Shown one piece after another: positions 2,167 to 28,515 of a DNA stretch of 40,444 bases (the stretch's first letter is position 1; each line of letters opens with the position of its first letter). Both the position numbers and the translations under genes were made by a program. The notes beneath the pieces are model-generated. The model had not been told where the DNA came from. It ran no database searches and saw only the letters and a list, made by a program, of their open reading frames with translations. Source of the DNA: a virus (taxonomy: Duplodnaviria; Heunggongvirae; Uroviricota; Caudoviricetes); the IMG/VR virus record IMGVR_UViG_2579778961_000003; one strand, written 5' to 3'.

Positions 2167-2192
2167 GAGAGATAAACGTTGGTTTGGGGGAA
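2167..2192. other. Invertase crossover site (gix/hix-like), left
   Basis: 26-bp site GAGAGATAAACG TT GGTTTGGGGGAA with AAAC-NN-GTTT centre typical of hix/gix sites; outer half is identical to the right site in inverted orientation. Confidence 0.55.
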
Positions 2193-2645
2193 GGCTCTGC
2201 ATTGCCTGTTGGTGTACCGGTTCCATGGCCCACCGCCACACCGCCAGCAGGCTGGTTACAGTGCAACGGAGCTACGTTCACCAAAGAACAATATCCTGTT
2301 CTGGTCAGAGTCTACCCGACCCTCCGTCTTCCCGATTTGCGCGGTGAGTTTATCCGTGGATGGGACGGTGGTCGCAAGGTTGATACCGGGCGTGCGCTAC
2401 TTTCATTTCAGGAAGGGACTATCGTATCCGGTTTTGATGATAATGATACCGGAGATATCAGTTCGCTCGGCTCTACACAATACGGATTTGGTGACGCTTT
2501 AACCTCTAATCAACTGGGGGTCTTAAATGGCAAAAAGTGGATATTTGATGCATCCTCTAAAGGTGCACAAAGATATGACTGGTGGGCTTATGTATCAGCT
2601 CGCCCCCGCAATATCGCATTTAACTATATCGTGAGGGCGGCGTGA
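2184..2645 (+). CDS. Alternative tail-fibre C-terminal cassette (Sv'-like), promoterless until inversion
   Basis: First 70 aa nearly identical to residues 278-346 of the fibre at 3266..4603 (GEGSALPVGVPVPWPTATPPAGWL...), then a divergent C-terminus ending NYIVRAA. Confidence 0.7.
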   Translation: MGEGSALPVGVPVPWPTATPPAGWLQCNGATFTKEQYPVLVRVYPTLRLPDLRGEFIRGWDGGRKVDTGRALLSFQEGTIVSGFDDNDTGDISSLGSTQYGFGDALTSNQLGVLNGKKWIFDASSKGAQRYDWWAYVSARPRNIAFNYIVRAA

Positions 2646-2651
2646 TACCGT

Positions 2652-3266
2652 TCAGCCGGCAAGCGCCAGTGGCGCTTCCGGCCAGCTGATTTCAGGTGCC
2701 TTGCTGATATCCAGTGCGTTCAGCTCGTCGATATAATCCAGCACGGCGTTCAGTTTTGCCGTTTCTTCTGGTTTCAGACTGCGACCAGCACGCAGTTTGA
2801 GGTTGATAAGATCGACGGACGCCATCGCCTGTTTCACCCGTTGCTGGCGTTGCTGTCTGGCAACCTCCAGTTCTGCGGCTCGCTGCCGTTCAGTATCGGT
2901 TACCCACGCCTCACCGTTCCAGGTATCCCATGGCGTGGCTGGCTGTTTTGTGGTGGTGTCCGCCGGGTAATCACCCGGTTGGGTAATCAGAACGGGGTTA
3001 CCGTTCTCCGTGCTGTATACCGTCTCGCCGCGGTGATCAGGCACATGCTCCCACCCGTTCAGCGTGGCAGTCCGGCAAACCACGTAACCCGAAATTGCTT
3101 CCGGCGGTGCATCGGCGCACGAATGTGCCGGAGTACCCACCCCAAGGGCGAGATACTCCACAGAGGATGAGGTGTATTCCCGGGTTTCCTCGTCATAGTG
3201 ATATACAGTGATATCGCCCGCTACAGTGGCGATACCGTTTTCATCCAGAACTGCAGTGTTACTCAT
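2652..3266 (-). CDS. Tail fibre assembly protein (chaperone, Mu U / P2 G-like)
   Basis: 204 aa ORF immediately downstream of the fibre gene, inside the invertible segment; position and size typical of tail fibre assembly proteins. Confidence 0.75.
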   Translation of the reverse strand: MSNTAVLDENGIATVAGDITVYHYDEETREYTSSSVEYLALGVGTPAHSCADAPPEAISGYVVCRTATLNGWEHVPDHRGETVYSTENGNPVLITQPGDYPADTTTKQPATPWDTWNGEAWVTDTERQRAAELEVARQQRQQRVKQAMASVDLINLKLRAGRSLKPEETAKLNAVLDYIDELNALDISKAPEISWPEAPLALAG

Positions 3267-4603
3267 TAAACTGCCCTCACAATGTAATTAAGTGCAATGC
3301 TACGGGGTCTGACAGTGATACCCTTCGCATACCCGCTTCTGATAGAGGTCAGAATAGTAGCCTGCATACCATTGTCTGACATTGCCACGACAGGATCGCT
3401 GAATGTTGTCCCGTCCGGCATTTTAAAGCTGCCCTCACGAAGGTCTGTAATGGAATCTTCATTGTTGAATCCCATGCCGACTATCCCCGAGGTTCCCGTA
3501 GTGTCCTGGTTATAATAATCCAGCATTGCTGTTCTTAACAGCGTTGCCCCTTGTGCGGACAGCAACTTACGTCCTGTATCAACTTTGCGCCCGTCGTCCC
3601 ATCCACGGATAAACTCACCGCGTAAATCGGGAAGACGGAGGGTCGGGTAGACTCTGGCCAGAACAGGATATTGTTCTTTTGTAAAGGCGCGCCCGTCGCA
3701 CTTTAACCAGCCTGCTGGCGGTGTGGCAGTGGGCCACGGAACAGGTACACCAACGGGCAGCGCCGAGCCTTCCCCCAAACCAAGGTAATTGAGGACATCT
3801 TTTATACTGCCCTTAGCGATAATAGCGCGACCAATAGCTGTAAGGGTTGCCAGCTCTGCGCGGTCTGCTCCGGTAAAATAAGGCAACCGATCTGCTGCAG
3901 TGGCAAGTCCTGCCAGAGCAGTGAGCGTGGCATCTGCCGGTTGTTTTCCGTTTGCCAGATCGTATGCAGCCTTGACCGCTTTCGGTGTGGCGGCCAGTAT
4001 TTCAGACGTGCTGTTGATGGCACTGCTCAATTGTACGGTGCCTTTTGCCGTCAGCGAGGCAGCAGGCACTCCCGTTATCTGACTCCACGGGTGAGTGTGG
4101 CTGACGGGCGCCTTGCCGGCTGCAAGGTCGTATGCAGCCTTGACCGCCTTCGGCGTGGCAGCCTCAGTTTCTGATTGACTGTCCGTGGCGCTGCTCAGTT
4201 GTACGGTGCCTTTTGCCGTCAGTGAAGCCGCAGGCACTCCCGTTATCTGACTCCACGGGTGAGTGTGGCTGGCAGGCGCCTTGCCGGCTGCCAGGTCGTA
4301 TGCAGCCTTGACCGCTTTTGGTGTGGCGGCCAGCGTTTCAGAGGTGCTGTTGGTGGCACTGCTCAGTTGGGTGAACCCCTTAGCTGTCAGTGTCGCGTCC
4401 GGGTGGTTACGGGAACGTACGTGTTCAGCCAGTGACTGTGCGGCTTCCTCCGTTTTCTTCTTCAGCCATTTCGTCCTGTTTGCCAGTTGCCGGGGGGCTC
4501 GATTTGATATCCCGTCTGCACCACCCAGAACCGGATCTGATGTCTCCAGTTGATAGATATTTTCTTCCCACTTTTCTGTTTCATTCAGGTTTCCCATAAT
4601 CAA
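3266..4603 (-). CDS. Tail fibre protein (Mu S / P2 H-like) with variable C-terminus
   Basis: 445 aa; internal 56-aa repeats with the ...SETLAATPKAVKAAYDL... motif known from Mu/P1/P2 fibres; C-terminus ends NYIVRAV. Confidence 0.85.
   Translation of the reverse strand: MIMGNLNETEKWEENIYQLETSDPVLGGADGISNRAPRQLANRTKWLKKKTEEAAQSLAEHVRSRNHPDATLTAKGFTQLSSATNSTSETLAATPKAVKAAYDLAAGKAPASHTHPWSQITGVPAASLTAKGTVQLSSATDSQSETEAATPKAVKAAYDLAAGKAPVSHTHPWSQITGVPAASLTAKGTVQLSSAINSTSEILAATPKAVKAAYDLANGKQPADATLTALAGLATAADRLPYFTGADRAELATLTAIGRAIIAKGSIKDVLNYLGLGEGSALPVGVPVPWPTATPPAGWLKCDGRAFTKEQYPVLARVYPTLRLPDLRGEFIRGWDDGRKVDTGRKLLSAQGATLLRTAMLDYYNQDTTGTSGIVGMGFNNEDSITDLREGSFKMPDGTTFSDPVVAMSDNGMQATILTSIRSGYAKGITVRPRSIALNYIVRAV
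3770..3795. other. Invertase crossover site (gix/hix-like), right
   Basis: TTCCCCCAAACC AA GGTAATTGAGGA, about 19/26 matches to hix as recalled; inverted relative to the site at 2167-2192. Confidence 0.55.
3944..4393 (-). repeat. In-frame 168-bp tandem repeats (about 2.7 copies) inside the tail fibre gene
   Basis: Protein repeat SLTAKGTVQLSSA...TPKAVKAAYDLAAGKAP.SHTHPWSQITGVPAA at residues 71-126 and 127-182, partial third copy 183-220. Confidence 0.8.
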
Positions 4604-5178: not shown

Positions 5179-6274
5179 CAGACACTCCAGTCATGTTAAG
5201 AGTGATTGCCGTACAGTTTGCCCATTCGTTTTCTGCCACCACCCGCAGTGCCGGTGTCACCAGTTCAACCTGGTACACCCCGGAAACGGACAATGCACTG
5301 ATAATCTGGCTGGGGACAATATCGCGCCCCAGCGTGGCGGCACGTGATGCCACCCAGTTCTGTATGGCGCTGTTAGCGGCATCTTTTACAGACCTGGCAT
5401 CCTGATCACGATAGATCGTAATCCTGGCTTCAATGGTGTAATCCACCTTCACTGGTGTTTTAGCCCGCACTGTATCAGTGAGTGGCCTGACTTTCTCATC
5501 AGAGCAGAAACTCTCTACCAGCGTGAGAACACCGCCGTCCGGCAGACCGGTACTGAGCAGCGGATACAGATCTACGGTCCCGGGAACCGGGGAAAGCACA
5601 GCAACATCGACAATGTTGGGATGGGCCTGCATGGCATGAAAGCGGTATGCGCCACGGCTTCCGGCATTGGTGAATGACTCCGGGGCCAGCCTGATACGCT
5701 CCCGGAGCCTGTCATCGTCTTCCTGTTCTGAACCGCCGGAACTGGCCATCAGATTGCTCACCAGCAGGTTAACGTTATCAATCTCATCGAGTAACTGACT
5801 GACCTGCGCAGGTTGCCAGCCGTTACCAGCGGTACCGGGTTCGGTACAGGTGGCCGTGACATTGACCAGCAGCAATCCGGCCTTCAGTACCACATCTGTA
5901 TCGGTGGCAAAAATAACGCTGTCGGAAGCGCTGACGCGGGTGCCTGCCGGGATCAGCACATCAATGGCCAGTGCCTCATCTACGGAGAACTGGAGCGTGG
6001 TGGTGGCAGGCTGCGCGGCAAGACGGTATACACCGACCAGTTCACCGAGGTAATCAATCATCGGCTCACGGGCAAAGGCGACCAGATTCTGCTTTGCTGC
6101 CTCCTGTACCGCAACCCTGACCAGCATTTCGCGATAGGCCCACAGATCAATCAGCAGACGTTCTGCCTGTGCCGGGTACAGCGTTTTGCCGGTATCCGCT
6201 TCATACTTCGCAATCATTTCTGCCGTGATTTTGTCGGCATCGCGTTCAATAAAATCGGGTTCTGTCAGCGCCAT
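5171..6274 (-). CDS. Baseplate protein J-like
   Basis: 367 aa; order W-J-I-fibre matches the P2-type baseplate module. Confidence 0.75.
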   Translation of the reverse strand: MALTEPDFIERDADKITAEMIAKYEADTGKTLYPAQAERLLIDLWAYREMLVRVAVQEAAKQNLVAFAREPMIDYLGELVGVYRLAAQPATTTLQFSVDEALAIDVLIPAGTRVSASDSVIFATDTDVVLKAGLLLVNVTATCTEPGTAGNGWQPAQVSQLLDEIDNVNLLVSNLMASSGGSEQEDDDRLRERIRLAPESFTNAGSRGAYRFHAMQAHPNIVDVAVLSPVPGTVDLYPLLSTGLPDGGVLTLVESFCSDEKVRPLTDTVRAKTPVKVDYTIEARITIYRDQDARSVKDAANSAIQNWVASRAATLGRDIVPSQIISALSVSGVYQVELVTPALRVVAENEWANCTAITLNMTGVSDD

Positions 6275-6612
6275 AGCAGCTCCTGAGTCCGGGTCTGTCC
6301 GTCTGAGCCTTTCCAGCTCACCCGGAGCGTAAGATGTTCGCCGTCGACGGCGGGTTTAACTGACATAAGCTGGCAGCGGGGCTCCCAGCGCCGGATGGCA
6401 TCGACGGATTCGCGCACCACATGCGGAATGGCCCGGTCTACAGGCCAGTCGATATAAAGATGCAGATTGCTGCCGAACTCCGGGCGATGCGGGTCGCTGC
6501 CGCGGGGAGTCCGCAGGATAATTTGAATCGCCTGCCGGATATCATCCAGCCCCCGGACAATTTCGCCGGGAGCCTGCAGGGCTGGTTGCCAGAATACTGA
6601 GGTTGTTTTCAT
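6265..6612 (-). CDS. Baseplate protein W-like (GPW/gp25 family)
   Basis: 115 aa small baseplate protein directly upstream of the J-like gene. Confidence 0.7.
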   Translation of the reverse strand: MKTTSVFWQPALQAPGEIVRGLDDIRQAIQIILRTPRGSDPHRPEFGSNLHLYIDWPVDRAIPHVVRESVDAIRRWEPRCQLMSVKPAVDGEHLTLRVSWKGSDGQTRTQELLWR

Positions 6613-6666
6613 GGGGGCAGTATTGCCCCCGTGCGGGAACGCTGATATTAAAGGCGTTTAAAAAGC

Positions 6667-7263
6667 TCAGTGGGAGTGGTGGCTGGAGTTTTCGCCATCA
6701 GACAACATACTGCCCGTGGCATGGACATTCCCTTTAATCTCGATATTGCCATGGATGGTCGCGGTAACACCTTCACCACCAGAACCCGCCATGCCTCCTT
6801 CGTAAATCAGCTTACCCCTGACACGCAGATCTCCGGTAAGTTCGGTTTCCGGTGCGTCAATCGTGGCTTTCTGTGTTTTCAATACCACATCAGCACCACA
6901 CTCAATGACAATATGCTCAATGCCGCCCCGGATGATCAGAGTGTGCGTCTTCCGGTTGTAGCTGTACTCTGCACCATCAGCAAACCGGGTTCCCCGGATA
7001 TTTTTGTCACTGAACGGTGGTTTATCGACGTCTGAATACACCGCGCCCAGAATAACACCATCCTCGCCGTTGGCATCGAGCAGCACCTCAACCTGCTCCC
7101 CCACGTCAGGGAGCCAGTAATCTTTGTTATCCTGGGTATTGCGCTGCAGCACGTTAAGCCAGTTTGTGCGCAGGTTATCGCATTCAGGCAGACGAACGCG
7201 GGCCTGAACCCTGTCGGCATCAACGGCACTGACCGTACCGACCTGACGAGTGACACCAGTCAT
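6667..7263 (-). CDS. Baseplate spike / assembly protein V-like
   Basis: 198 aa, N-terminal OB-like region and Gly-rich C-terminus; position between D-like and W-like genes. Confidence 0.7.
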   Translation of the reverse strand: MTGVTRQVGTVSAVDADRVQARVRLPECDNLRTNWLNVLQRNTQDNKDYWLPDVGEQVEVLLDANGEDGVILGAVYSDVDKPPFSDKNIRGTRFADGAEYSYNRKTHTLIIRGGIEHIVIECGADVVLKTQKATIDAPETELTGDLRVRGKLIYEGGMAGSGGEGVTATIHGNIEIKGNVHATGSMLSDGENSSHHSH

Positions 7264-8617: not shown

Positions 8618-9498
8618 ACACTCCTCGTCAGTATTCTGGCGGCCATTGCACTTAATCCCGGAGACATGCGGTTGAATGCTGTGCCGACGGCGTTAAGCTG
8701 CCCGGAAACGGTATCCAGAGCACCTGCAATATTTCTTTTGTCCACACCACTCAGCGCAGACTGTGCCTGCTGTACATACGTGGCTGCTTCGCTGGCTGTT
8801 CTGGCCAGACTGATGGCATCGGGCATGGATTCAGAGAGTGCGTTAAACGCCGGAACACTTTTCCCCAGAGCCCCGGAGATATTACCCAGTCCGCTCATCA
8901 GCCCCGGCACACGGGTCAGTGCGACAACGGGGTTATCCTTCATTTTCTGTGTCACCCGAACGGCGCTGATAGTGGTCTGGAGTACAGACTGCGCCTGTTT
9001 CGCATAGTTGACGCCGTTGCGGATGAACTGCGCCACCCCTGAAGGTGAAGGTATGGCACCGGAGACCGCCCCGACACCCGGGAGCTTCGTGCGTATTGCC
9101 GGTGGTTGCAGAGGATTTTTCGGGTCACCGGTGTATTCCCGGAGAGACACGGTGGCACTGACAGCCAGCACGTTGCCGGTACTGTCAGTCTGCTCGCTGG
9201 TTGCAGTCACATCGGTGATCACGAACCAGCCGCGATAGTCACCGTTGCCGAAGACCAGCGCCAGTGCCTGATGGGCTTTCATGGCTGTTCGCAGTCTCGC
9301 CAGCTCCACATCGGGTACACAATAATGCTGATGGAAAACCAGAGTTATCTGGATTTCGTCCAGCCTGTCGCCGACGAACTGCAGACCAGGCTTACCCCCG
9401 ATGCGGGCATGCTCCGCATAATCGACGCCGAACGTGGCCTCGAAGCCGTCCCAGTAGGTAATCAGCTCAAACTCAATATCACCCAGTACGGCAAACAT
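8614..9498 (-). CDS. Tail protein U-like with C-terminal extension
   Basis: N-terminus MFAVLGDIEFEL...GGKPGLQFVGDRLDEIQITL follows the P2 gpU pattern as recalled; immediately downstream of the tape measure gene. Confidence 0.6.
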   Translation of the reverse strand: MFAVLGDIEFELITYWDGFEATFGVDYAEHARIGGKPGLQFVGDRLDEIQITLVFHQHYCVPDVELARLRTAMKAHQALALVFGNGDYRGWFVITDVTATSEQTDSTGNVLAVSATVSLREYTGDPKNPLQPPAIRTKLPGVGAVSGAIPSPSGVAQFIRNGVNYAKQAQSVLQTTISAVRVTQKMKDNPVVALTRVPGLMSGLGNISGALGKSVPAFNALSESMPDAISLARTASEAATYVQQAQSALSGVDKRNIAGALDTVSGQLNAVGTAFNRMSPGLSAMAARILTRSV

Positions 9499-12449
9499 CA
9501 GCGGTACTCCTTACGTTGTTTCTGAGCCAGCAGACGCTCCAGCATTTTTTCCAGCTCATGCAGACTCATATTCAGGGCACCAGTCAGTCCTGCAGGCGCT
9601 GTGGTTTCCCTGCCATTGAGGAAAAACTGAGGATTAAAGCTGACCTGGATACCACCAGACGTTCCACCGCCGGTTGCAGCTGCACCACGGCCTGAATATC
9701 CGGCAGCCAGGATTTCAGGCGAGGGGATACGGGGAACATCCGGTGTCATCTCATTTGCCAGACGTTGCCCTGGTAAAATCGATGCCCGGGTGGAGAGCGG
9801 AATAGCGGGCATGGAAGACAAACTATTGATTACGGCTCCGATCGCATTTTTAGCAGACGACATAAACCCATTGATATCGGGCAACGGCATACTGAAGCGA
9901 ACACCTGAAGTGTTATCCCGTATTTCTGGCCCCTGAATGCTCACGGGCATTCTGGGGAGCAGTTCACTGGCCATTCGCTGCCCGGCCAGAGCTGCAAGCG
10001 GAGTGGTCCGCTGCAGGCCAATGGCGGCCCCCTGCGCGATATTGTCACCAAAGCCCATAAACACGCGGCTCGGCGAATGAATGCCCAGCTTTTCGCTGAA
10101 CCAGCCACTGATGCTGTCGCCCATTCCGGTTACACTGGATTTGAGCGACTCCCATTTGTTTTTGATACCGTTAATCAGACCATCGACAAGATGGCCACCG
10201 AAGTCGGTAAACTTTGCCGGCAGATCAACACCAAGATATTTCAGCGCAGCTGCAAAGGCTTTATAGAGCAGACCTGCCGGCGACCAGTTAATCAGCAGCT
10301 TACCAGTTCCCGCGATACCGCCGTTAAAGGCTTCCTGAATGTCAGCCCAGCATTGTTTAAACCAGCTACTGATGCTGTCACCCATTCCGGTTACACTGGA
10401 TTTGAGCGACCCCCATTTGTTTTTGATACCGTTAATCAAACCGTCGATAAGATGGCCACCGAAGTCGGTGAACTTTGCCGGCAGAGTAACGCCGAAATAT
10501 TTCAGCGCAGCCGCAAAGGCTTTATAGAGCAGGCCTGCCGGCGACCAGTTAATCAGCAGCTTACCAGTTCCCGCGATACCGCCGTTAAAGGCTTCCTGAA
10601 TGTCAGCCCAGCGCTGTTTAAACCAGCCACTGACTGCCCCCCAGTTGCGGTAGATAAGGTAAGCTGCTGCCGCGACAGCGGTGATAACGAGACCGATGGG
10701 ATTCATCATCAGCGCTCGCCCAATCCAGAGAACGGCACGTGCAGCGCTCATAAAACCGCGAACGAGGCTGCCCGCCAGAACTTTGCTGAGTTTCAGTCCT
10801 CCGCTGGTCAGTCGGCTGAATCCAGTGACAAGCCAGCGTAATTTGCCACCTTCTCCGAGTGCGGTAGTCAGTCGATGCCAGTTGGTCCGGAGTAAAACAG
10901 CAGTTTTCCAGACGTTCACAAAGGGGGAAATAAGGAGATTCAGCCCCAGTTTGAGACCAACAGTCGCTATCTTAATCGCAAGGAGCGCACTGATGAGCTT
11001 AAAAGCCCCACTGACAAATTGCGGGTGAGTCGCCACCCAGTGTTTTGTCCCCTGAATGAGTGGGAGCAAGTCCTGAGTCAGAGAAATAAAAGATGGAGCT
11101 AATTGATCGCCCAGCGTAATTGCCAGATCGCGACTGCTGACCATAAGTGTTTTAGTGGCTTCAAGGGGAGATTTCAGCCGCTGATCATAAGCACTGGCAA
11201 GCAAATCGTTATCCGCAGCCCTGAGAGCACCGGCACGGATCTCTCGATATCTGTCCATGTTGGCCAGCATCGGGCGGATAAATGCCATGACCTGCATATC
11301 CGCGAACATATCGCCCAGACCAAAGTTTTTCGCCAGAGCCTGAAGTGCCTCATCTCTTGCCGTATCATTCTTTATTTTCATGGCTGATTTGAAGCCGGCC
11401 AGCGCTTCGGGGCTTTTGGCATTGAGGTAACGTTCTATAACACTCAACATCCCTTCAATCGGAGAGATCCCCGCAGCTTTATAACTCGCAATAGATCCCT
11501 GCAAATCAATACCCAGATCAGCAAACTGTTTCTGAGTATCGCGGGCAAAAATTTTGGTAAGAAAGTTTTTAAAATTATTGGCTGCTTCGTCGGTGGAACC
11601 TGCACCGATTTTTGCTATCTGGAGACTGGCCCCGATTTCAGCAACAGCCTCTTTTCCACTGGCAATACCCGCCATCATTGGGGCCAGGGACTGCATCCAC
11701 TTGACCTGATCCGGGATTTCAAATGACCCCTGGTCACCGGCATAAGCCATAATATTCTGAACGGCACCAAAATCTCTGGCCGCGCCTTTCAGGGAGTTTT
11801 GCCAGACTGCGGCCACTTTTGCCCAGTCCTGAGCAGACGTGCGTGTTGCCGTTGCCGCGCGGGCAATATCCGGCATCAGAAAACCGATATCTGACACATT
11901 ATCAATATTGTCGCTGATGAGTGAACCCATCGCCTCCTGCAGCTCATCCTGATACTGATTGTATTTAAGCGCCCAGCCTTTTATCTGTCCGGCAAGTGCA
12001 TCCCGCGTTTTATTGTCATATTTTGCGGTGATCGACATATCAATCATTTTGTCCTGAAAAGACATGGACTGCTGAACGGCAGGGGAAACCGTATGATAAA
12101 CAGTCTGTGCCATGCCATACGCTTCAATCCCCTGACCATACAGCGCCATGCGGTTAGCTTTCAGCGCATCACTGGTAGCGGATGCCGCTGACAGACGGCG
12201 CTGCTGGCGCTCAATTTGCTCCATGGTGCGGCTTACCCGCAGCAGCTCGCTGTTGAGATGCTGCATCCGGGAAGAACCCAGTTGACCATAACGTTCTGTT
12301 GCACGGGTTAAAGCGTTCTGACGTTCCTGCAGGCGGCGTGAGGTATCGCTCAGGGAATCAAGCGCACGGCGGGTACCGCTCATTGCAGAACGGAATGTGC
12401 TGCCAATCATCCCGCCGATAACAACGCCGACTGAAAACTGTCCCGACAT
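9498..12449 (-). CDS. Tail tape measure protein
   Basis: 983 aa, coiled-coil N-terminal region, hydrophobic central region, located after the frameshifted tail chaperone. Confidence 0.9.
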   Translation of the reverse strand: MSGQFSVGVVIGGMIGSTFRSAMSGTRRALDSLSDTSRRLQERQNALTRATERYGQLGSSRMQHLNSELLRVSRTMEQIERQQRRLSAASATSDALKANRMALYGQGIEAYGMAQTVYHTVSPAVQQSMSFQDKMIDMSITAKYDNKTRDALAGQIKGWALKYNQYQDELQEAMGSLISDNIDNVSDIGFLMPDIARAATATRTSAQDWAKVAAVWQNSLKGAARDFGAVQNIMAYAGDQGSFEIPDQVKWMQSLAPMMAGIASGKEAVAEIGASLQIAKIGAGSTDEAANNFKNFLTKIFARDTQKQFADLGIDLQGSIASYKAAGISPIEGMLSVIERYLNAKSPEALAGFKSAMKIKNDTARDEALQALAKNFGLGDMFADMQVMAFIRPMLANMDRYREIRAGALRAADNDLLASAYDQRLKSPLEATKTLMVSSRDLAITLGDQLAPSFISLTQDLLPLIQGTKHWVATHPQFVSGAFKLISALLAIKIATVGLKLGLNLLISPFVNVWKTAVLLRTNWHRLTTALGEGGKLRWLVTGFSRLTSGGLKLSKVLAGSLVRGFMSAARAVLWIGRALMMNPIGLVITAVAAAAYLIYRNWGAVSGWFKQRWADIQEAFNGGIAGTGKLLINWSPAGLLYKAFAAALKYFGVTLPAKFTDFGGHLIDGLINGIKNKWGSLKSSVTGMGDSISSWFKQCWADIQEAFNGGIAGTGKLLINWSPAGLLYKAFAAALKYLGVDLPAKFTDFGGHLVDGLINGIKNKWESLKSSVTGMGDSISGWFSEKLGIHSPSRVFMGFGDNIAQGAAIGLQRTTPLAALAGQRMASELLPRMPVSIQGPEIRDNTSGVRFSMPLPDINGFMSSAKNAIGAVINSLSSMPAIPLSTRASILPGQRLANEMTPDVPRIPSPEILAAGYSGRGAAATGGGTSGGIQVSFNPQFFLNGRETTAPAGLTGALNMSLHELEKMLERLLAQKQRKEYR
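10075..10640 (-). repeat. 261-bp in-frame tandem duplication (2 copies plus the start of a third) inside the tape measure gene
   Basis: ccagc(c/t)actgatgctgtc recurs at 10101, 10362 and 10623 (period 261 bp); the protein shows two 87-aa units WFKQ(R/C)WADIQEAFNGGIAGTGKLLINWSPAGLLYKAF... Confidence 0.9.
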
Positions 12450-12524: not shown

Positions 12525-12942
12525 CTATGATTTGTCGCCGTACTCGCTTTTGATTTGCTCTTCAGCCTGCTCCAGCCACATCTCCAGATCGTCAGTATCG
12601 AGGGCATCAATCTCCCCCGGCTGAAACCGGAACCATCTCGCCAGCAGCCCCTGCGCCTGCGTCAGCGCCCTGGTTGCTCTCACCCATCCCCGTGATGAGC
12701 TGAAATCGTTTCTGTAACTGCAGGTAATCAGCCAGATCCATATTGTCGAGATCCTCCGGGAGAAGACCAGTACTGCGGGCAATCAGCGGTTCGTCCCAGT
12801 CTGCCGGGTTTTTGCTGATTTTGCGCACCTGCTTCAGGTCTTTTACCGTCAGGCGTTTCAGTTCAACCAGCTCAATTCTGGTGCCTGCAGCAGTGGTGAA
12901 GGGATAAGACAATTTAAAAGTATCGGATGGGGTCTGTGACAT
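12525..12942 (-). CDS. Tail assembly chaperone, predicted frameshift-extended product (E+E'-like)
   Basis: Overlapping ORF 12525..12782 in the +1 frame fills the otherwise 157-nt gap before the tape measure gene; a G5 run (plus-strand C5 at 12614-12618) lies just before the zero-frame stop. Confidence 0.5.
12607..12942 (-). CDS. Tail assembly chaperone (P2 gpE-like), zero-frame product
   Basis: 111 aa ORF with AGGAG RBS between tail tube and tape measure genes. Confidence 0.7.
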   Translation of the reverse strand: MSQTPSDTFKLSYPFTTAAGTRIELVELKRLTVKDLKQVRKISKNPADWDEPLIARSTGLLPEDLDNMDLADYLQLQKRFQLITGMGESNQGADAGAGAAGEMVPVSAGGD

Positions 12943-13018
12943 GATTGTGCTCCTGTGTAAGTTCAGGGCAGTATGTCGGGAGAAGCGCGTGACGGATATT
13001 AAAGGAGATTAAGAAGAA

Positions 13019-13032
13019 GGGGCCGGAGCCCC
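13019..13032 (-). terminator. Hairpin with T-rich tail downstream of ORF 13040..13321
   Basis: Minus strand GGGGC-TCCG-GCCCC followed by TTCTTCTTAATCTCCTTT, 8 nt after the ORF stop. Confidence 0.4.
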
Positions 13033-13039
13033 TGTGATG

Positions 13040-13321
13040 TCAGCAAGTGCGAAACCCCTTGCAGTTACGCAGGAAAGCGATGAGAAGCGTCTTTCCCTCA
13101 GATTTGCCGATGCCGGAGAACCAGTGGTCGGGAGGCTCCCATGCTTCAATCAAATCCGCCAGTTTGCGGGCCTTTGAACGTGTGCAGTCAATCGGGTCAT
13201 TGGTTTTACGGGTATTAAAAAGGGTTTCCACCCCCGGAATATCAAGGAGGGTAAACCACGTACCATTTGACATGCCCAGTGCCGCACATCGTCCTCCTTT
13301 ATCCGTCAGTTCAACACTCAC
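13040..13321 (-). CDS. Hypothetical protein inserted between tail tube and tail chaperone genes (possible moron)
   Basis: 93 aa ORF starting at GTG 2 nt after the tube stop; not part of canonical P2 or Mu tail gene order; followed by its own hairpin. Confidence 0.4.
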   Translation of the reverse strand: MSVELTDKGGRCAALGMSNGTWFTLLDIPGVETLFNTRKTNDPIDCTRSKARKLADLIEAWEPPDHWFSGIGKSEGKTLLIAFLRNCKGFRTC

Positions 13322-13323
13322 CG

Positions 13324-13845
13324 TCAGCCCCCGATATTGATACGGTAGTCAGTCAGTTGATCAACACCGCCGACCCGGAAGATGTTGGCCAGATAGTCCA
13401 GTTGCAGCAGCTCTTCACCATCCAGTACCTGTCTGATATACGTGCAGGTGAAGCTACTGGAGAACTCGGCGTTCTCGTGCTGTTTGAACGTCCCCAGCGG
13501 GTTCTTCTTGAACATAATCGTCAGGAAGGTGACCAGCGGGATTTCGTCAATCAGCCCCTGCGAGCTGTAGCGCTGGACGCTGGAACGACACTGCAGTGCC
13601 AGCGACCTGTACGGGTTCGCGGCAGACAGCATCGCATCGCGGTAAAAGCTGTTCCATTTGATTTCGCCTTCCAGTTTGTCAAAACCAGCCGGGAGTTCCA
13701 CCTTACCCACCATCCCCAGCGCCTTGTGTTCCTGCATAATCATGGAGACATCGGGGAGTTTAACTTCCTCAGCCCGTCCCAGCAGGTTAGTACCATCCAG
13801 ATAGATGTTGGCATTCGTGATGCGGTTTATCTCAATCTTTGACAT
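13324..13845 (-). CDS. Tail tube protein (P2 FII-like)
   Basis: 173 aa ORF directly after the sheath gene. Confidence 0.8.
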   Translation of the reverse strand: MSKIEINRITNANIYLDGTNLLGRAEEVKLPDVSMIMQEHKALGMVGKVELPAGFDKLEGEIKWNSFYRDAMLSAANPYRSLALQCRSSVQRYSSQGLIDEIPLVTFLTIMFKKNPLGTFKQHENAEFSSSFTCTYIRQVLDGEELLQLDYLANIFRVGGVDQLTDYRINIGG

Positions 13846-15272
13846 CAGTTGCCCCCTTTCAGGGTTAACAGGTATTCCGAGGTGATCTCAGTCTCAAACG
13901 TCAGTCGCTCCAGCGGCGGTGGTGGCGTATATTTGTAGCTCAGCAACAGGTGCCCGGCGGCCAGCTCCGTCTCCGGATTGCGGGCCGGATCAAACCAGCA
14001 ACGGAAGCCCAGTACCGCACCATCACCAGTCATTTTGCGACCGTAGGCGTTGACCGACTCCGTCAGTGCATCAATCAGCGCCTGAGTAATCGGCATGTCG
14101 ATGTACTGCTGGCTGAAATAACGAATGGACTCGTTGATCACATCACCGGTGCGGCGAACGTTCTCAAAGTTACGCATATGGGTGACCGTTGGCCATGCTG
14201 CCGTCCGGTTACCCCACAGACGAAGGCCGCTGCCGTAACTGCTGAATACCGTGGTGATCCCCTGTTCGTTAAGCAGGTTCACCTCACTCTGCGGGTCATC
14301 AATCATCGCGGACAGCTGGCGCTCCACGCCGGTGATCCCCAGAATCTCCTGATTGGAGGATGACCACCAGTAGCCCTTGTCCAGATCGACTCTGGCACGC
14401 AGACCTGCTGCACGCTGGCTGAGCGGCTCCAGACGCTCTGTGTTTGTCACCGGGTCATATACCTTCACATGCGGATAGCACAGACGGACGCGGTCGGAGC
14501 TGGTATTGAAGTTGATGGTGCCTTCCGGGCCACGACCTGCCAGAGCCTGTGCAAAGGTGGTACCGACAGGCGCATCAATGTAGGTTACCGCGCCCAGCTT
14601 CTCTGCCATGGCGATAAGCTCAACTGCGACACTCTTCTGGGTGCAGAACACCGGCGCAATCAGAATTTTGGCGAAATAGCCGTACAGGTTGAAGCTGTCG
14701 TTAAGCAGCTTCATGCCGGTTCGGTTTCCGGCGCTGTTCACCCCGCCGATGATGTCCGCCGCAGTCACCTTCGACGGGTCCGCGTACTCATAGCTCACCT
14801 TCACGCTGCCACCGGCCTCAATAGCCTTGCCCAGGTTCGTGAGCACACCCGCCTGCGCATCAACACGGTAGTCCGTGTTCGCCGTGTGGGTGGTGCTGCC
14901 TTCACTGTTTTTCACCACCACATTAGCGACAACCGGATGCGCCAGTCTGGCCTGCCCTGTCGATTTGTCAAAGGTAACCACCTCATCCTCGATCGCCGTT
15001 TTATGTTTCGCCGGGTCGAGGACGTTAATGACCAGAACGGTGCCTGCACCATGGTCATAAATCGCATCCAGCGCCTGCGGAATGGTAAAGCCGGTGAACT
15101 GGCTGCCAAATGCCGCTGCGTCTTTCTCAGACAGGCACTGTACCAGCGTATTGACATCCCCCATCGGGGCGGTACCAATCAGGCCAATAACGGCAGATTT
15201 CACCGTTTTAACCGGGCGGGCACCGTTTTCCACCTCAATGGTTTCGGGACCATGCAGATAGTTAGCTGCCAT
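13845..15272 (-). CDS. Tail sheath protein
   Basis: 475 aa; size and position typical of contractile tail sheath (Mu L / P2 FI family). Confidence 0.9.
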   Translation of the reverse strand: MAANYLHGPETIEVENGARPVKTVKSAVIGLIGTAPMGDVNTLVQCLSEKDAAAFGSQFTGFTIPQALDAIYDHGAGTVLVINVLDPAKHKTAIEDEVVTFDKSTGQARLAHPVVANVVVKNSEGSTTHTANTDYRVDAQAGVLTNLGKAIEAGGSVKVSYEYADPSKVTAADIIGGVNSAGNRTGMKLLNDSFNLYGYFAKILIAPVFCTQKSVAVELIAMAEKLGAVTYIDAPVGTTFAQALAGRGPEGTINFNTSSDRVRLCYPHVKVYDPVTNTERLEPLSQRAAGLRARVDLDKGYWWSSSNQEILGITGVERQLSAMIDDPQSEVNLLNEQGITTVFSSYGSGLRLWGNRTAAWPTVTHMRNFENVRRTGDVINESIRYFSQQYIDMPITQALIDALTESVNAYGRKMTGDGAVLGFRCWFDPARNPETELAAGHLLLSYKYTPPPPLERLTFETEITSEYLLTLKGGN

Positions 15273-18614: not shown

Positions 18615-18644
18615 GTAAGCGTCAACGGAGCACCGTATTGACGC

Positions 18645-20258
18645 TTATTTATTGGTGAGTACTACGTTCCATGGCAGGAGTTCGTCAACTCGGTTGGAAG
18701 GCCATTCCGGCAGTACGCTCAGGATATGGCGCAGATACGCTTCCGGATCGATACCGTTCAGACGGCAGGTGCCGATCAGCCCGTACAACAGTGCTCCACG
18801 CTCGCCGCCGTGATCGCTGCCAAAGAACATAAAGTTTTTCTTTCCGAGACAGACTGCACGAAGCGCTCTTTCCGCAGCATTATTATCCGCCTCCGCCAGA
18901 CCGTCATCACTGTAATAACAGAGGGCATCCCACTGATTCAGTACATAGCTGAACGCTTCGCCCAGTCTGGATTTTTTCGACAGCGTACCATTCTTCTCCA
19001 CCATCCATTCATGCAGCGACGTCAGTAACACTTTGCTTCGCTGCTGCCTGACGGCAAGACGCTCTGACTCCGGTAATCCCCGTATTTCATCCTCGATGGC
19101 GTACAGTTCACTGATTCGCTTCAGGGCTTCTTCTGCCGTCGCACTTTTGCTGCTGATGTATACATCGTGGATTTTTCGCCGGGCATGGGCCCAGCACGCA
19201 ACTTCTGTCAGTGCACCACCTTCACGTTCTGCACTGAACAACCTGTCGTAACCTGTGAACGCATCCGCCTGCAGGATACCCCGGAAGGGGCGGAGGTGTT
19301 GCTCCGGGTGTTTCCCCTGCCGGTTCGGCGAGTACGCGAACCAGACCGCTGGAGGAGATGACGAACCCACATTGCGATCATCCCGGACATACGTCCAGAT
19401 ACGCCCTGTTTTCGCCTTTTTCTGACCCGGTGCCAGTACCTTTACCGGTGTGTCATCAGTGTGAACCTTGCGGGTGTTCATTACATAACGGTACAGGGCA
19501 TCATTCACCGGTGTCATTAACTGGCAGCACGCGTCAACCCAGTTGGAGAGTAAGGCCCGGCTCAGTTCGACACCCTGGCGGGCAAAGATTTCACTCTGAC
19601 GATACAGTGGCAGATGTTCGCAGTATTTTCCCGTTAACACGCGGGCAAGTAATCCGGGGCCCGCGATACCACGCTCTATCGGGCGGGACGGCGCCGGTGC
19701 TTCAACAATACAGTCACATTTTGTACAGGCTTTTTTTACCCGTTCTGTGCGGATCACTTTCAGGGCACTGCTCACCAGTTCCAGCTGTTCAGCGCTGACT
19801 TCCCCCAGATAATCCAGCTCACCGCCACACTCCGGGCAACAGCTTTCTTCTGGCTCCAGGCGGTGTATTTCACGGGGAAGGTGTGCCGGTAACGGACGAC
19901 GATGGCGCGACTGTCGCAACTGGCGGGGAACCTGAGGATCGTCTTCCCGCCCACTGTAACGATCGCTGTCCTGTTCACGTTGTTTCAGCAGAGCCTCAGC
20001 CAGTTCAACTTCACGACGCAGTTTTTCAGAACGGGTACCGAACAGCATCCGGCGCAGTTTTTCTATCTGAGCCCGCAGATGTTCTATTTCCCGTTCATCT
20101 TCTTCGATCTTTTCTTCGGCACGTGTCAGTGCAGAGCGCAGGAAGGCTTCCGTCTCTTCAACCAGACTCAGTTGCTGGTCTTTCTGACGGAGGGCTTCAG
20201 CCTGCTCAGAGAGCAACCTTTCCAGCTCTGCGATGCGAATGAGGTATTTCTGACTCAT
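18645..20258 (-). CDS. IS66-family transposase (TnpC)
   Basis: 537 aa with N-terminal coiled-coil/leucine zipper (LRAQIEKLRRMLFGTRSEK), zinc-finger cysteines and DDE region, as recognised for IS66 transposases. Confidence 0.9.
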   Translation of the reverse strand: MSQKYLIRIAELERLLSEQAEALRQKDQQLSLVEETEAFLRSALTRAEEKIEEDEREIEHLRAQIEKLRRMLFGTRSEKLRREVELAEALLKQREQDSDRYSGREDDPQVPRQLRQSRHRRPLPAHLPREIHRLEPEESCCPECGGELDYLGEVSAEQLELVSSALKVIRTERVKKACTKCDCIVEAPAPSRPIERGIAGPGLLARVLTGKYCEHLPLYRQSEIFARQGVELSRALLSNWVDACCQLMTPVNDALYRYVMNTRKVHTDDTPVKVLAPGQKKAKTGRIWTYVRDDRNVGSSSPPAVWFAYSPNRQGKHPEQHLRPFRGILQADAFTGYDRLFSAEREGGALTEVACWAHARRKIHDVYISSKSATAEEALKRISELYAIEDEIRGLPESERLAVRQQRSKVLLTSLHEWMVEKNGTLSKKSRLGEAFSYVLNQWDALCYYSDDGLAEADNNAAERALRAVCLGKKNFMFFGSDHGGERGALLYGLIGTCRLNGIDPEAYLRHILSVLPEWPSNRVDELLPWNVVLTNK

Positions 20259-20288
20259 GACCGTTTTTATAATGCGGTCAGGAGTTTT

Positions 20289-20639
20289 TTACAACATTGT
20301 CAGTGAGTTACGGCTGGATGTTTTTGGCTGACGCCAGTCCAGCTTATCGAGGAGCATTGCCAGTTGCGAGCGGGTAATGGATACCTTGCCGTCACGTACC
20401 GCAGGCCAGATAAACTGGCCTTCCTCCAGGCGTTTGGTGAACAGGCACAGACCATCAGCATCAGCCCAAAGAATTTTGACGGTGTCACCCCGTCGGCCAC
20501 GGAAGATAAACAGGTGACCGGAGAAGGGATTATCATTCAGCACATGTTGTACCTGTTCTCCCAGTCCGTTGAAGGATTTACGCATATCGGTAACGCCGGC
20601 AACGAGCCAGATACGGGTACCTGATGGGAGTGAGATCAT
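20289..20639 (-). CDS. IS66 Orf2 (TnpB) accessory protein
   Basis: 116 aa ORF in IS66 position 2; overlaps TnpA stop. Confidence 0.85.
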   Translation of the reverse strand: MISLPSGTRIWLVAGVTDMRKSFNGLGEQVQHVLNDNPFSGHLFIFRGRRGDTVKILWADADGLCLFTKRLEEGQFIWPAVRDGKVSITRSQLAMLLDKLDWRQPKTSSRNSLTML

Positions 20640-21061
20640 CTTCCCCTCCCGGTCAGTTCACGGATCAACACTGTGAGCAGCTCTGGCGATGGATTTTCCA
20701 GCGTCATGTTACCGTGACGGAATTCCACCTTGCAGGAACTGGCACTGACTCTGGTCTGAGTGGAAGTGGATAAAGACGGCGCAATGGCCGCCACAGGTTC
20801 TTTCTGCTCATCCGGCGTTATTTCTACAGGTAATAATTCAACGCCAGTGTCAGAAGAGGTCGTTACCGGAAGACGCCGCGAAACACGCCCTTCGTTCTGC
20901 CAGAGCCTGAGCCATTTGAAAATAACATTATCATTGACGCCATTTTCACGTGCAATCTGTGCAACACAAGCTCCAGGTTGTGATGCCAGTTCCACCATAC
21001 GAAGTTTGAATTCATTCGAATAGTTTTTACGAGGTTCTTTTCGCCAGTCCTGTAATTCCAT
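20636..21061 (-). CDS. IS66 Orf1 (TnpA) accessory protein
   Basis: 141 aa ORF with HTH-like N-terminus, first gene of the IS66 operon. Confidence 0.8.
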   Translation of the reverse strand: MELQDWRKEPRKNYSNEFKLRMVELASQPGACVAQIARENGVNDNVIFKWLRLWQNEGRVSRRLPVTTSSDTGVELLPVEITPDEQKEPVAAIAPSLSTSTQTRVSASSCKVEFRHGNMTLENPSPELLTVLIRELTGRGR

Positions 21062-21146
21062 ACTTAGATGTCCGTCTATATCAGATGGGCGTCTAAGTTA
21101 CCAATTCTCGTCTGATGGCTACATACGGCGGTCAGTTTACGCTTAC

Positions 21147-27144: not shown

Positions 27145-27791
27145 TTCTGTAATCCTTCCCGTTCATCCAGCAGCGCGTTTATCTGGTTCCGCCAGCGACG
27201 ACATTGCCATGCGTTGTCGATGATGTTGGCGAGAACGTCACGCTGGGAGACACCCGAATCGCGTAACCGGGTGTCAGTGGTTTCAGGTTGCCCGGTCGCT
27301 GTGCCAGAGCGGGTGCCAGTGGCGGCAACTGAGTCTGAATGACCGGTGTCGACGGATGCGTTGTCATATCCGAGTGCGGCGTTGTACTGGCGCACGAAAC
27401 CGCGAGTAAACACGCACTCAATGGGATGACTCTTACCTTTTTCATCAATCCAGCGCTGTGTGACATCGTTAATTTGCCCCTGTAGTTGTTTGTTCCGGCT
27501 CTCCAGTTGAGCAATCTGCTCAAGATAACCGGCTTCAGCCCGCTGCCCGGCGGCCACCTGCTCCTGATACCGTCTGGCCCAGGCCCGCAGCGCAGCATTC
27601 TCAAGCGTTGCCTGCTCCGTTTTGTACGCGTCAAATGCTGACTGCAACTGACTTAGCGCGGTATCACCGTCACGCTTTGCAGAGTCATGACCACTTCTGT
27701 ATCCCATGGCATACAGGCCGACCAGAAAGGCATTGATAAGAATGGCCAGCAGAATGCCGCGCCACGGCAGCTTTTTAACCAGATGCCACAC
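27141..27791 (-). CDS. i-spanin (Rz-like)
   Basis: N-terminal TM (GILLAILINAFLVGLYAMG) then coiled-coil; start tentatively at GTG 27791 with GGAGG RBS; embedded lipoprotein ORF in the +1 frame. Confidence 0.65.
   Translation of the reverse strand: MWHLVKKLPWRGILLAILINAFLVGLYAMGYRSGHDSAKRDGDTALSQLQSAFDAYKTEQATLENAALRAWARRYQEQVAAGQRAEAGYLEQIAQLESRNKQLQGQINDVTQRWIDEKGKSHPIECVFTRGFVRQYNAALGYDNASVDTGHSDSVAATGTRSGTATGQPETTDTRLRDSGVSQRDVLANIIDNAWQCRRWRNQINALLDEREGLQK
27179..27445 (-). CDS. o-spanin (Rz1-like) embedded within Rz
   Basis: MKKVRVIPLSACLLAVSC lipoprotein signal followed by a proline-rich segment; start at internal ATG 27445. Confidence 0.7.
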   Translation of the reverse strand: MKKVRVIPLSACLLAVSCASTTPHSDMTTHPSTPVIQTQLPPLAPALAQRPGNLKPLTPGYAIRVSPSVTFSPTSSTTHGNVVAGGTR

Positions 27792-28515
27792 AACTGCTGC
27801 CTCCCCATGTGAGATATCGCGGTGCCAGTTCGCGCAGGATGCGCTGCGGATAATGGCGGTTCTCCCGCCAGCTGGCCGCATTGCGTCCGGCATTCACCGT
27901 GGCGACATGTCCGAACCAGCGGGTGCTGTCCAGACCTTTCTGTGATGCAAGCCGCCTGTCCCGTTGTACCCAGCCCAGACCACCGTTATAGCCCGACAGT
28001 GTCATGGCCATACGCTCGCAGTCACTGGCGGCGCTGACACGCTGCCACAGCCAGCGGTCATAGCTGACCAGCGCCCGGATAGCCCATGCCGGATTAAACG
28101 GCTCACGACTGCTCAGCATCGGTATCAACTGGCTTATCCAGTCGGCAGTGGCAGGCATGAACTGCGCCAGTCCCTGAGCGCCAGCCGGCGAGATCGCATC
28201 AGGTCGCCAGCCGCTTTCCTGATGCAGTTGCGCGGCGAAATCGGCCACCGGCGCAGACAGTCCCCATTCAAGCCGGGCATTACGGATCACATCATCGCGA
28301 TACTGCAGCGCAGCCTGCGGAGGTTGTGCTGCGCATGCCTGGCTGAAAAAGCCGCCACACCAGAGCAACATTGCGACAAAGAATACCCATGCCATATGAA
28401 CCAGAAAGGTCCCGGCGCGGACTGACAGGCGTTCGGTTCTGATGAAGACCCGAAAGGCTTCGAAAGCCAGTTTCAGGGACATGCATACAATCCAGGTGAT
28501 CTGCGGCCAGTTCAT
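27775..28515 (-). CDS. Endolysin, lytic transglycosylase (SLT domain)
   Basis: SLT motif ...QESGWRPDAISPAGAQGLAQFMP...; hydrophobic N-terminal region may be a signal-anchor; start codon uncertain (28515 or 28395). Confidence 0.85.
   Translation of the reverse strand: MNWPQITWIVCMSLKLAFEAFRVFIRTERLSVRAGTFLVHMAWVFFVAMLLWCGGFFSQACAAQPPQAALQYRDDVIRNARLEWGLSAPVADFAAQLHQESGWRPDAISPAGAQGLAQFMPATADWISQLIPMLSSREPFNPAWAIRALVSYDRWLWQRVSAASDCERMAMTLSGYNGGLGWVQRDRRLASQKGLDSTRWFGHVATVNAGRNAASWRENRHYPQRILRELAPRYLTWGGSSCVASG

Follow-up and report, generated by a model that had tools for sequence, protein, structure and literature searches.

The term moron, in the sense of Hendrix and colleagues, is applied to genes such as gp15 of HK97 and bor and lom of lambda. 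One known case of a defence moron lodged in a Mu-like phage's late operon is Tab, an 83-aa defence protein encoded by Pseudomonas phage JBD26 (PMC10884400). Phage accessory genes also occupy hotspots, as in P2, where defence systems of 1-5 kb lie between gpA and gpQ next to cos (PMC9122126). DMP12 of Neisseria, which will be considered below for its shape, is an acidic DNA mimic (PDB 3W1O; PMC3643605). By family (DUF7739, PHROG 1239), the gene described here belongs with Sf6 gp22, HK75 gp27 and a protein encoded in the CUS-3 region near hkaH.

The stretch of DNA analysed, referred to as the window, is 40,444 nt long (record IMGVR_UViG_2579778961_000003), and all genes of the locus lie on its minus strand. 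The sheath gene (15272..13845; Phage_sheath_1 and 1C) is followed by the gene for a P2 FII-like tail tube (13845..13324; Pfam Phage_tube PF04985, E 2.9e-53). Further downstream, the gene for a P2 gpE-like tail assembly chaperone (12942..12607; Phage_TAC_7 PF10109, E 5.5e-21) precedes that for the tape measure (12449..9498). A frame overlapping the chaperone gene (12782..12525) has a sub-threshold GpE-like match (PF06528, E 0.023), scoring 14.6 bits where the gathering score is 23. The tube and chaperone genes are the upstream and downstream anchors of the slot, and between them lies a 93-aa ORF (13321..13040) with a GTG start exactly 2 nt past the TGA of the tube gene. A GC hairpin with a 6 bp stem and a 4 nt loop, followed by a T-rich tail (13033..13018), was detected by a scan for terminator-like sites and by folding, and starts 6 nt beyond the ORF stop. 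It is followed by a conserved spacer recognised by alignment, TTCTTCTTAATCTCCTTTAATATCCG...CATACTGCCCTGAAC..AGGAGCA (13017..12943), which lies 5' of the chaperone ATG. This arrangement had been described in an earlier note made from the letters of the window alone, and the coordinates of the ORF, its GTG and the hairpin were confirmed. The note had also proposed that the ORF interrupts the usual order of sheath, tube, chaperone and tape measure. This holds, as the 93-aa gene is absent from BcepMu, phiE255, the Salmonella Infantis SARB27 prophage and Pseudomonas phage Bise, in which the tube gene leads directly to the chaperone gene. The ORF is extra DNA relative to that order.

The region is 100% identical to a very common E. 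coli prophage located next to aroA/serC and present in 641 of 5426 complete E. coli genomes, including those of O25b:H4-ST131 clinical isolates; in E. coli genomes the 93-aa gene is annotated only as 'hypothetical protein'. Given its Mu-type head genes (DUF935 portal, Mu F-like and G-like proteins, DUF3486) and P2-type tail, the prophage is a BcepMu-like element. Among its isolated or deposited relatives are Escherichia phage PhiKM and a contig that bears the name of Klebsiella phage KP12. The latter (L006, OM835952.1, 'Klebsiella phage KP12 clone KP12_2'; 35 kb) shares the tail module of the prophage and is a BcepMu-like temperate element in a record classed as Vequintavirinae, and is likely a co-purified prophage filed under the name of a lytic phage. 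An 8.2-kb contig of Arthrobacter sp. GMC3 (NZ_PJIO01000028.1; L013, L051 and L129) shares 97-100% protein identity with the tail region of the prophage and is almost certainly assembly contamination.

Compared with the intact reference prophage L001, the window carries a 2.5-kb IS66-family insertion (18615..21146) with a 537-aa transposase (20258..18645) and small accessory ORFs, and 8 bp of the reference sequence overlap at its junction, in keeping with a target-site duplication. The element interrupts a gene that immediately precedes the major capsid gene and is annotated as encoding a 371-aa hypothetical protein. The position of this gene suggests that its product is a putative Mu gpI-like protease/scaffold, and the prophage copy in the window is probably defective for head assembly. 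The tape-measure gene contains an in-register tandem duplication (10099..10633; 261 nt, 2.0 copies, 93% identical) of an 87-aa segment, and a longer tail would be the expected outcome; in many relatives the tape measure, at ~54% identity, is apparently shorter. Short inverted and direct matches (84-99% identity) between positions 2174..4369 of the window and 24632..27261 of L001 were found around the tail-fibre genes, beside which L001 annotates a recombinase family protein (27328..27900). The two prophages may differ in the orientation of an invertible tail-fibre segment.

The 93-aa ORF is a genuine gene, far beyond a chance ORF, because its product matches phrog_1239, its dN/dS relative to orthologues in other genera is 0.06-0.13, and its AlphaFold2 model has a pLDDT of 89. 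The phrog_1239 match ('unknown function'; E 4.7e-48) spans residues 1-93 and profile positions 1-96 of 96. The corresponding dN/dS values were 0.03 for the tube and 0.17-0.36 for the chaperone. A lack of coding signal in codon usage, named in the earlier note as a possible argument against the ORF, was not seen: on local codon usage, the annotated frame scores highest of six. The GC content of the ORF is 52.1% versus 53.3% for the tube gene, and its GC3 is 0.54, with values of 0.70 for tube, 0.68 for sheath, 0.57 for chaperone and 0.54 for tape measure.

In the Pfam search, the window protein alone scored 24.7 bits with DUF7739 (PF24881), below the gathering score of 27. A cluster representative 98% identical to it carries a precomputed PF24881 match, the profile of the tail-slot clade recovers proteins exceeding the DUF7739 gathering score, and Sf6-type members clear that threshold with 69-72 bits. 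As judged by the PHROG and profile searches, on which the homology rests, the window protein is a divergent member of DUF7739. A profile of 15 close homologues identified 76 representatives at E<=1e-3 in a search of 1.8 billion proteins, nearly all of them 90-100 aa long, and the conserved motifs of the 93-aa protein are NGTWF, TNDP, WxPPxxW and a C-terminal CxGFxT. Longer family members (P0056, P0077, P0100, P0017 and P0032) were considered as true domain fusions and rejected as functional clues; they resemble read-through or assembly joins with the neighbours DUF2737, YopX, lambda P, Gp37 and tube. No function could be taken from annotated homologues of the DUF7739 family, and a literature search on DUF7739, hkaH/HK620, fHe-Yen8-01 and PhiKM yielded nothing relevant.

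AlphaFold2 gives a single confident domain (pTM 0.81) with the element order β-β-α-α-α-β, and the 93-aa protein has no transmembrane segment (maximum KD19 0.82); the product is predicted to be a soluble single-domain α/β protein. Foldseek returned nothing at E<1e-3 against the PDB and only uncharacterised phage proteins against BFVD, and no tail or chaperone protein stood above noise in the fold searches. Sequence searches of the PDB gave 0 matches for the single sequence and only a chance match (E 1.5) for a 51-sequence profile, while the PADLOC defence profiles gave no match at E<=10. NCBIfam gave no match at all, and no tail family was found for the protein in Pfam, PHROG or NCBIfam, the sole tail-related match being phrog_1442 (E 0.41). 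The view expressed in the earlier note, that the product resembles no recognised tail protein, is thus borne out by the homology and structure predictions for which the note had called, which place it in DUF7739/phrog_1239 and give it no likeness to a tail component.

The fold bears a weak resemblance to DMP12 (PDB 3W1O) and to CdiI (PDB 5J4A), with sequence identities of 6-8%, and Foldseek lends no support to the DMP12 match (E 3.1). The window protein has a pI of 8.4 and a net charge of +2. The enterobacterial branch as a whole, including tail-slot and Sf6/EPP-1-type copies, is near-neutral to basic (net -2 to +4), with a median net charge of 0 for the tail-slot copies, and the distant family members are mostly acidic (median pI 4.8). 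Given this near-neutral charge, DNA mimicry is unsupported for the window protein.

The distribution of the gene was examined in two surveys. One, anchored on the ORF, retrieved 100 loci with the 93-aa protein, comprising 20 species genomes and 80 viral contigs. Among these, all full-length homologues of at least 66% identity were located between a tube and a chaperone gene, and all homologues of 56% identity or less lay outside tail modules. The carriers of the slot copy were prophages of Escherichia, Klebsiella, Pseudocitrobacter, Mixta, Intestinirhabdus, Limnobaculum, Trabulsiella, Pantoea, Erwinia, Serratia, Symbiopectobacterium, Buttiauxella, Apirhabdus and Photorhabdus, so that DUF7739 has been kept in the tail slot across at least 14 enterobacterial genera.

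The other survey, anchored on the tube and decisive for whether the gene is part of the tail, covered the best 80 of 393 tube-positive viral contigs, 76 of which had a tube identity of at least 91%. Among these 76, DUF7739 was alone in the slot in 59, was accompanied by a Phage_gp49_66 gene in eight, and was replaced by a different cargo, a 66-aa phrog_9518 protein, in one (L190); in the other eight, with tubes 91-97% identical, the slot was empty. The tube-chaperone distance was 90-131 nt in seven of the eight empty slots, and the eighth (L181) has the same junction sequence as L184, its larger tblastn gap being due to a partial chaperone match. Decayed copies were also found. The 5' part of the ORF is missing at three Photorhabdus loci, as read directly in P. 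tasmaniensis (L029) and inferred from partial tblastn matches in L030 and L032, and the copy in one Mixta locus (L020) can be read for only 60 aa; the tube and chaperone genes beside each of these copies are intact. The comparison of related prophages at this position, suggested in the earlier note, therefore gave a clear polymorphism, and the 93-aa gene is facultative among otherwise collinear relatives. Conservation as a structural component, which the note had named as an argument against its reading, was not observed either: the gene is kept in many genera, yet is dispensable and belongs to a family found more widely outside tail modules. Hence, given its absence from close and distant relatives, the decayed copies and the family context elsewhere, the 93-aa gene is not a tail component.

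The slot, 0.2-0.6 kb in size, thus occurs in four states: with DUF7739, with gp49_66 plus DUF7739, with phrog_9518, or empty. The gp49_66 cargo is typified by the 99-aa Phage_gp49_66 protein of L014 (4712..5011; N4 gp49/Sf6 gene 66 family, E 2.1e-11; phrog_322), and it lies between tube and DUF7739 also in L017, L019, L024, L059, L063, L067 and L082, and further in L090, L103, L144, L151, L155 and others. Both this family and DUF7739 have homologues in Sf6. The unrelated third cargo, in L190 (~4022..4222), is a 66-aa ORF, MSEKIVVNAEQIKALAEF..., assigned to phrog_9518 of unknown function and followed by its own version of the hairpin, GGAGGGAGAGGTTTCCCTCC, and then TTTTTT. In the Pantoea stewartii locus (L019), ~1.4 kb of extra DNA (5277..6682) separates the DUF7739 gene from the chaperone gene, and is probably an IS or further cargo. 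Small reverse-strand ORFs were seen between chaperone and tape measure in phiE255 (L010, 3597..3839) and Bise (L012, 3463..3753), which hints at a further small site for cargo, located one gene downstream from the tube-chaperone slot.

The hairpin in the window, AGGGGCTCCGGCCCCT followed by TCTTCTTAAT, folds with -12.8 kcal/mol (z = -2.3 versus shuffles). The scan found 4 terminator-like sites against 2.7 expected in shuffles, which is not statistically remarkable alone, and the call is supported by the conservation of the hairpin at the same position in relatives. Right after the tube stop, BcepMu and phiE255 have GGCCCGCTTCGGCGGGCC and then TTTTTT, and the Salmonella prophage has CGGGGCTGCGGCCCCG and then AATTT. 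Most empty sites read tube stop, ~10 nt, hairpin, and then TTCTTCTTAA(C/T)CCCCTTTAATATCCG...CATACTGC(C/T)CTGAA...AGGAGCA..ATG, the block 3' of the hairpin being the one that follows the ORF in the window. Two empty sites (L185 and L192) are without the hairpin and retain the TTTAATATCCG motif. The loop of the hairpin is variable (TCCG, TTCG, ATCA, TTAG, TGCG) and its stem is kept, with a stem wholly different in sequence in Burkholderia; this pattern fits a conserved structural role. Since ORF-less relatives and most empty sites have such a hairpin and the same spacer, the hairpin is ancestral, and the cargo was inserted between the tube stop and the pre-existing hairpin. The proposal made in the earlier note, that the hairpin is the ORF's own terminator, was ruled out on these grounds.

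From what is generally known of phage late operons, the post-tube hairpin would be expected to attenuate transcription or to stabilise the 3' end, leaving more sheath and tube mRNA than mRNA of the downstream tail genes. In the Salmonella prophage, ~30 nt separate the hairpin from the chaperone start, leaving little space for a separate promoter, so that the downstream genes there are probably transcribed by read-through. The ~75-nt spacer (TTCTTCTTAAyCCCCTTTAATATCCG ... CATACTGCyCTGAA ... AGGAGCA) is strongly conserved in filled and empty sites alike. The block present at 12943..13017 of the window recurs in L164, L176, L184, L006 and L025, and its core, TTTAATAT, is invariant even in the hairpin-less L185 and L192. 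The spacer may combine the chaperone ribosome-binding site with a regulatory site that serves the chaperone and tape-measure genes, such as a late promoter dependent on an activator.

At the tube/ORF junction (13322..13335), the tube gene ends in ATC GGG GGC TGA (Ile-Gly-Gly-stop), and these last codons form a G-rich Shine-Dalgarno sequence 6 nt 5' of the GTG, with an anti-Shine-Dalgarno duplex of -8.6 kcal/mol. All three cargo types have a G-rich run in the last codons of the tube gene, 6-9 nt 5' of the start codon, with the sequences ATC GGG GGC TGA, GGA GGG TGA and GGG GGG TAA and a predicted anti-Shine-Dalgarno pairing of -8.6 to -10.7 kcal/mol. In the two-gene state, gp49_66 starts within a few nt of the tube stop and the ATG of DUF7739 overlaps the end of gp49_66. 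A consensus scan of the minus strand from 15082 to 12400, which may miss weak or non-canonical promoters, gave no sigma-70-like site. Given the start 2 nt past the tube stop, which leaves no space for a promoter, the Shine-Dalgarno sequence within tube codons and the lack of a sigma-70-like site, the cargo genes are, as read from the sequence, embedded in the operon and translationally coupled to the tube gene, rather than being modules of promoter, gene and terminator.

Of the copies outside tail modules, Sf6 gp22 has DUF2737 on one side and Ea22-like/Lar-like genes on the other, with erf, ssb and abc2 upstream, HK75 gp27 directly precedes int, the copy in Edwardsiella phage EPP-1 is near rdgC and int, and that of an Enterobacter phage is among EaA/EaE genes. 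Further copies of DUF7739 occur among the small genes of ~95-kb phages. The usual home of the family is in early-left accessory regions, podoviruses included, and as Sf6 is a podovirus, the family cannot be a general sheath or tube accessory. Guilt by association was tried for the distant contexts and rejected, as no recurrent partner gene was found in them. The lambdoid pL operon and the Mu late operon are silent in lysogens. As both homes of the family are silent in this state, a role in the lytic cycle is more likely than one in lysogenic conversion. A homologue of 39% identity in Yersinia phage fHe-Yen8-01 (gp123; L004, 5001..5309) is annotated as 'particle associated protein', and its neighbours are other particle-associated proteins, including a very large ADP-ribosyltransferase toxin-like protein; if this annotation rests on virion proteomics, some DUF7739 members may be packaged.

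Taken together, the locus is best explained, with a probability of about 0.6, as a hotspot of a BcepMu-like prophage holding a horizontally acquired, dispensable DUF7739 cargo gene that is probably expressed late and may modulate the lytic cycle. The part of this reading that is most secure is that the gene is facultative, non-structural cargo devoid of transcription signals of its own, which is highly likely. In the proposed sequence of events, a dispensable DUF7739/phrog_1239 gene would have been acquired horizontally and placed exactly between the tube stop codon and the older post-tube hairpin, in a small insertion hotspot. As the final cistron ahead of the hairpin, it would ride the late sheath-tube mRNA, and it would be translated by coupling to the tube gene, whose final Gly codons would serve as the Shine-Dalgarno sequence. 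Its product would probably appear late in the lytic cycle, more or less in parallel with the tube protein, and would then bind and block a host or defence protein. This last step draws on the position of family members beside abc2, Lar-like and Ea22-like genes and on the weak fold likeness to DMP12 and CdiI. As the fold is inhibitor-like and the Sf6 and HK75 relatives have anti-RecBCD and restriction-alleviation genes as neighbours, we tentatively regard the product as a small protein-binding modulator of a host or defence factor, possibly acting in counter-defence. Late expression, however, is odd for a classical early anti-defence factor, and the retention of the gene in the slot in at least 14 genera under purifying selection could mean that a tail-related or prophage-specific role has been acquired.

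The reading offered in the earlier note, a classic moron, would make the gene an autonomous unit whose transcription in the lysogen starts at a hidden promoter within the tube gene's 3' end and stops at the hairpin, and which benefits the host, for example by superinfection exclusion or anti-phage defence as with Tab of JBD26. The presence/absence polymorphism, a small product with no structural homology to tail proteins, the terminator-like hairpin 3' of the gene, the precedent in a Mu-like late operon and a GC3 below the 0.68-0.70 of sheath and tube all agree with it. However, only 2 nt separate the gene from the tube stop, the scan of the minus strand between 15082 and 12400 found no sigma-70-like site, most empty sites already have the hairpin, and translational coupling to the tube holds for all three cargo types. 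In addition, the lambdoid members of the family belong to the pL operon, which is repressed in lysogens, and the protein has no PADLOC match, so that an autonomous moron is unlikely. The coupling of transcription and translation to the tube gene would suit an accessory to tail assembly co-opted in this lineage, one that aids assembly of sheath or tube, for instance by preventing tube monomers from polymerising too early, or a minor virion-associated protein that is delivered along with the DNA. That at least 14 Enterobacterales genera have kept the gene in one slot under purifying selection, and that the distant fHe-Yen8-01 homologue is labelled 'particle associated protein' and lies near other such proteins, point in this direction. 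Against this, the gene is absent from prophages whose tubes are 91-97% identical and from BcepMu, phiE255, the Salmonella prophage and Bise, and it has decayed at three Photorhabdus loci and one Mixta locus beside intact tail genes. Homologues also reside in early regions of podoviruses and siphoviruses that have no such sheath or tube, and no fold match to a tail or chaperone protein was obtained, which leaves a tail accessory decidedly improbable.

A further candidate role is that of an inhibitor that mimics DNA as DMP12 does and thereby blocks a host protein that binds DNA, for example HU, a nuclease or a restriction enzyme. The charge of the window protein and of its enterobacterial branch is unlike a DNA-like surface, and with 6% sequence identity to DMP12 and a Foldseek E of 3.1, such mimicry is very improbable. 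A bolder version of the favoured reading treats the slot as a dedicated plug-in site, in which the Gly-Gly codons are the ribosome-binding site and the old hairpin is the 3' end, and DUF7739 as a new late-acting counter-defence protein; we consider this a long shot. If it were true, any small ORF arriving there would gain high-level late expression in step with the tube, and DUF7739 might mask tube or sheath from abortive-infection sensors of structural proteins, or alternatively be loaded into virions and act at the next infection.

In the favoured reading, that of operon-borne lytic-cycle cargo, the 93-aa gene is an ordinary accessory gene of a known DUF family, whereas the hotspot between tube and hairpin is apparently undescribed, as judged by the searches made. 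Nothing here would surprise a phage genomicist, and the mechanism of DUF7739 is only proposed. DUF7739 joins the mobile, non-structural phage accessory genes that are worth testing in anti-defence and host-takeover screens. The locus further presents a very small cargo slot within a late tail operon, whose insert borrows its ribosome-binding site and 3' hairpin from the tube gene, and shows that passenger genes can ride structural operons without the promoter and terminator of the textbook moron.

Set beside its own family, the window protein shares with the Sf6 and HK75 proteins the four conserved motifs, a length of 93-102 aa, predicted solubility and the status of an uncharacterised protein, and Sf6 gp22 likewise matches phrog_1239 over its full length (E 2.6e-54). 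Identity is only 40-44%, however, and the Sf6 and HK75 genes lie in the early-left (pL) region by abc2, DUF2737 and Ea22-like genes, whereas the window copy lies in a late tail operon. The likeness to DMP12 and CdiI is one of shape and not of family membership, the window protein, with its pI of 8.4, having no acidic DNA-like surface. In architecture the locus resembles morons and Tab, being an optional small ORF in a Mu-like late structural operon with a hairpin 3' of it. Unlike morons, the gene has no promoter of its own that could be found, its hairpin was not brought by the insert, and its ribosome-binding site comes from the tube gene. Of the classic moron, what stands is that the DNA is extra and facultative, and the label fits only in the loose sense of 'more DNA'. 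As in the accessory hotspots of P2 and P4, a defined slot between conserved anchors shows turnover of unrelated cargo. It differs from the P2 hotspot in its size, in its location in a tail operon and in its content, single small genes with no known defence domains, and it supplies its guests with both a ribosome-binding site and a 3' end.
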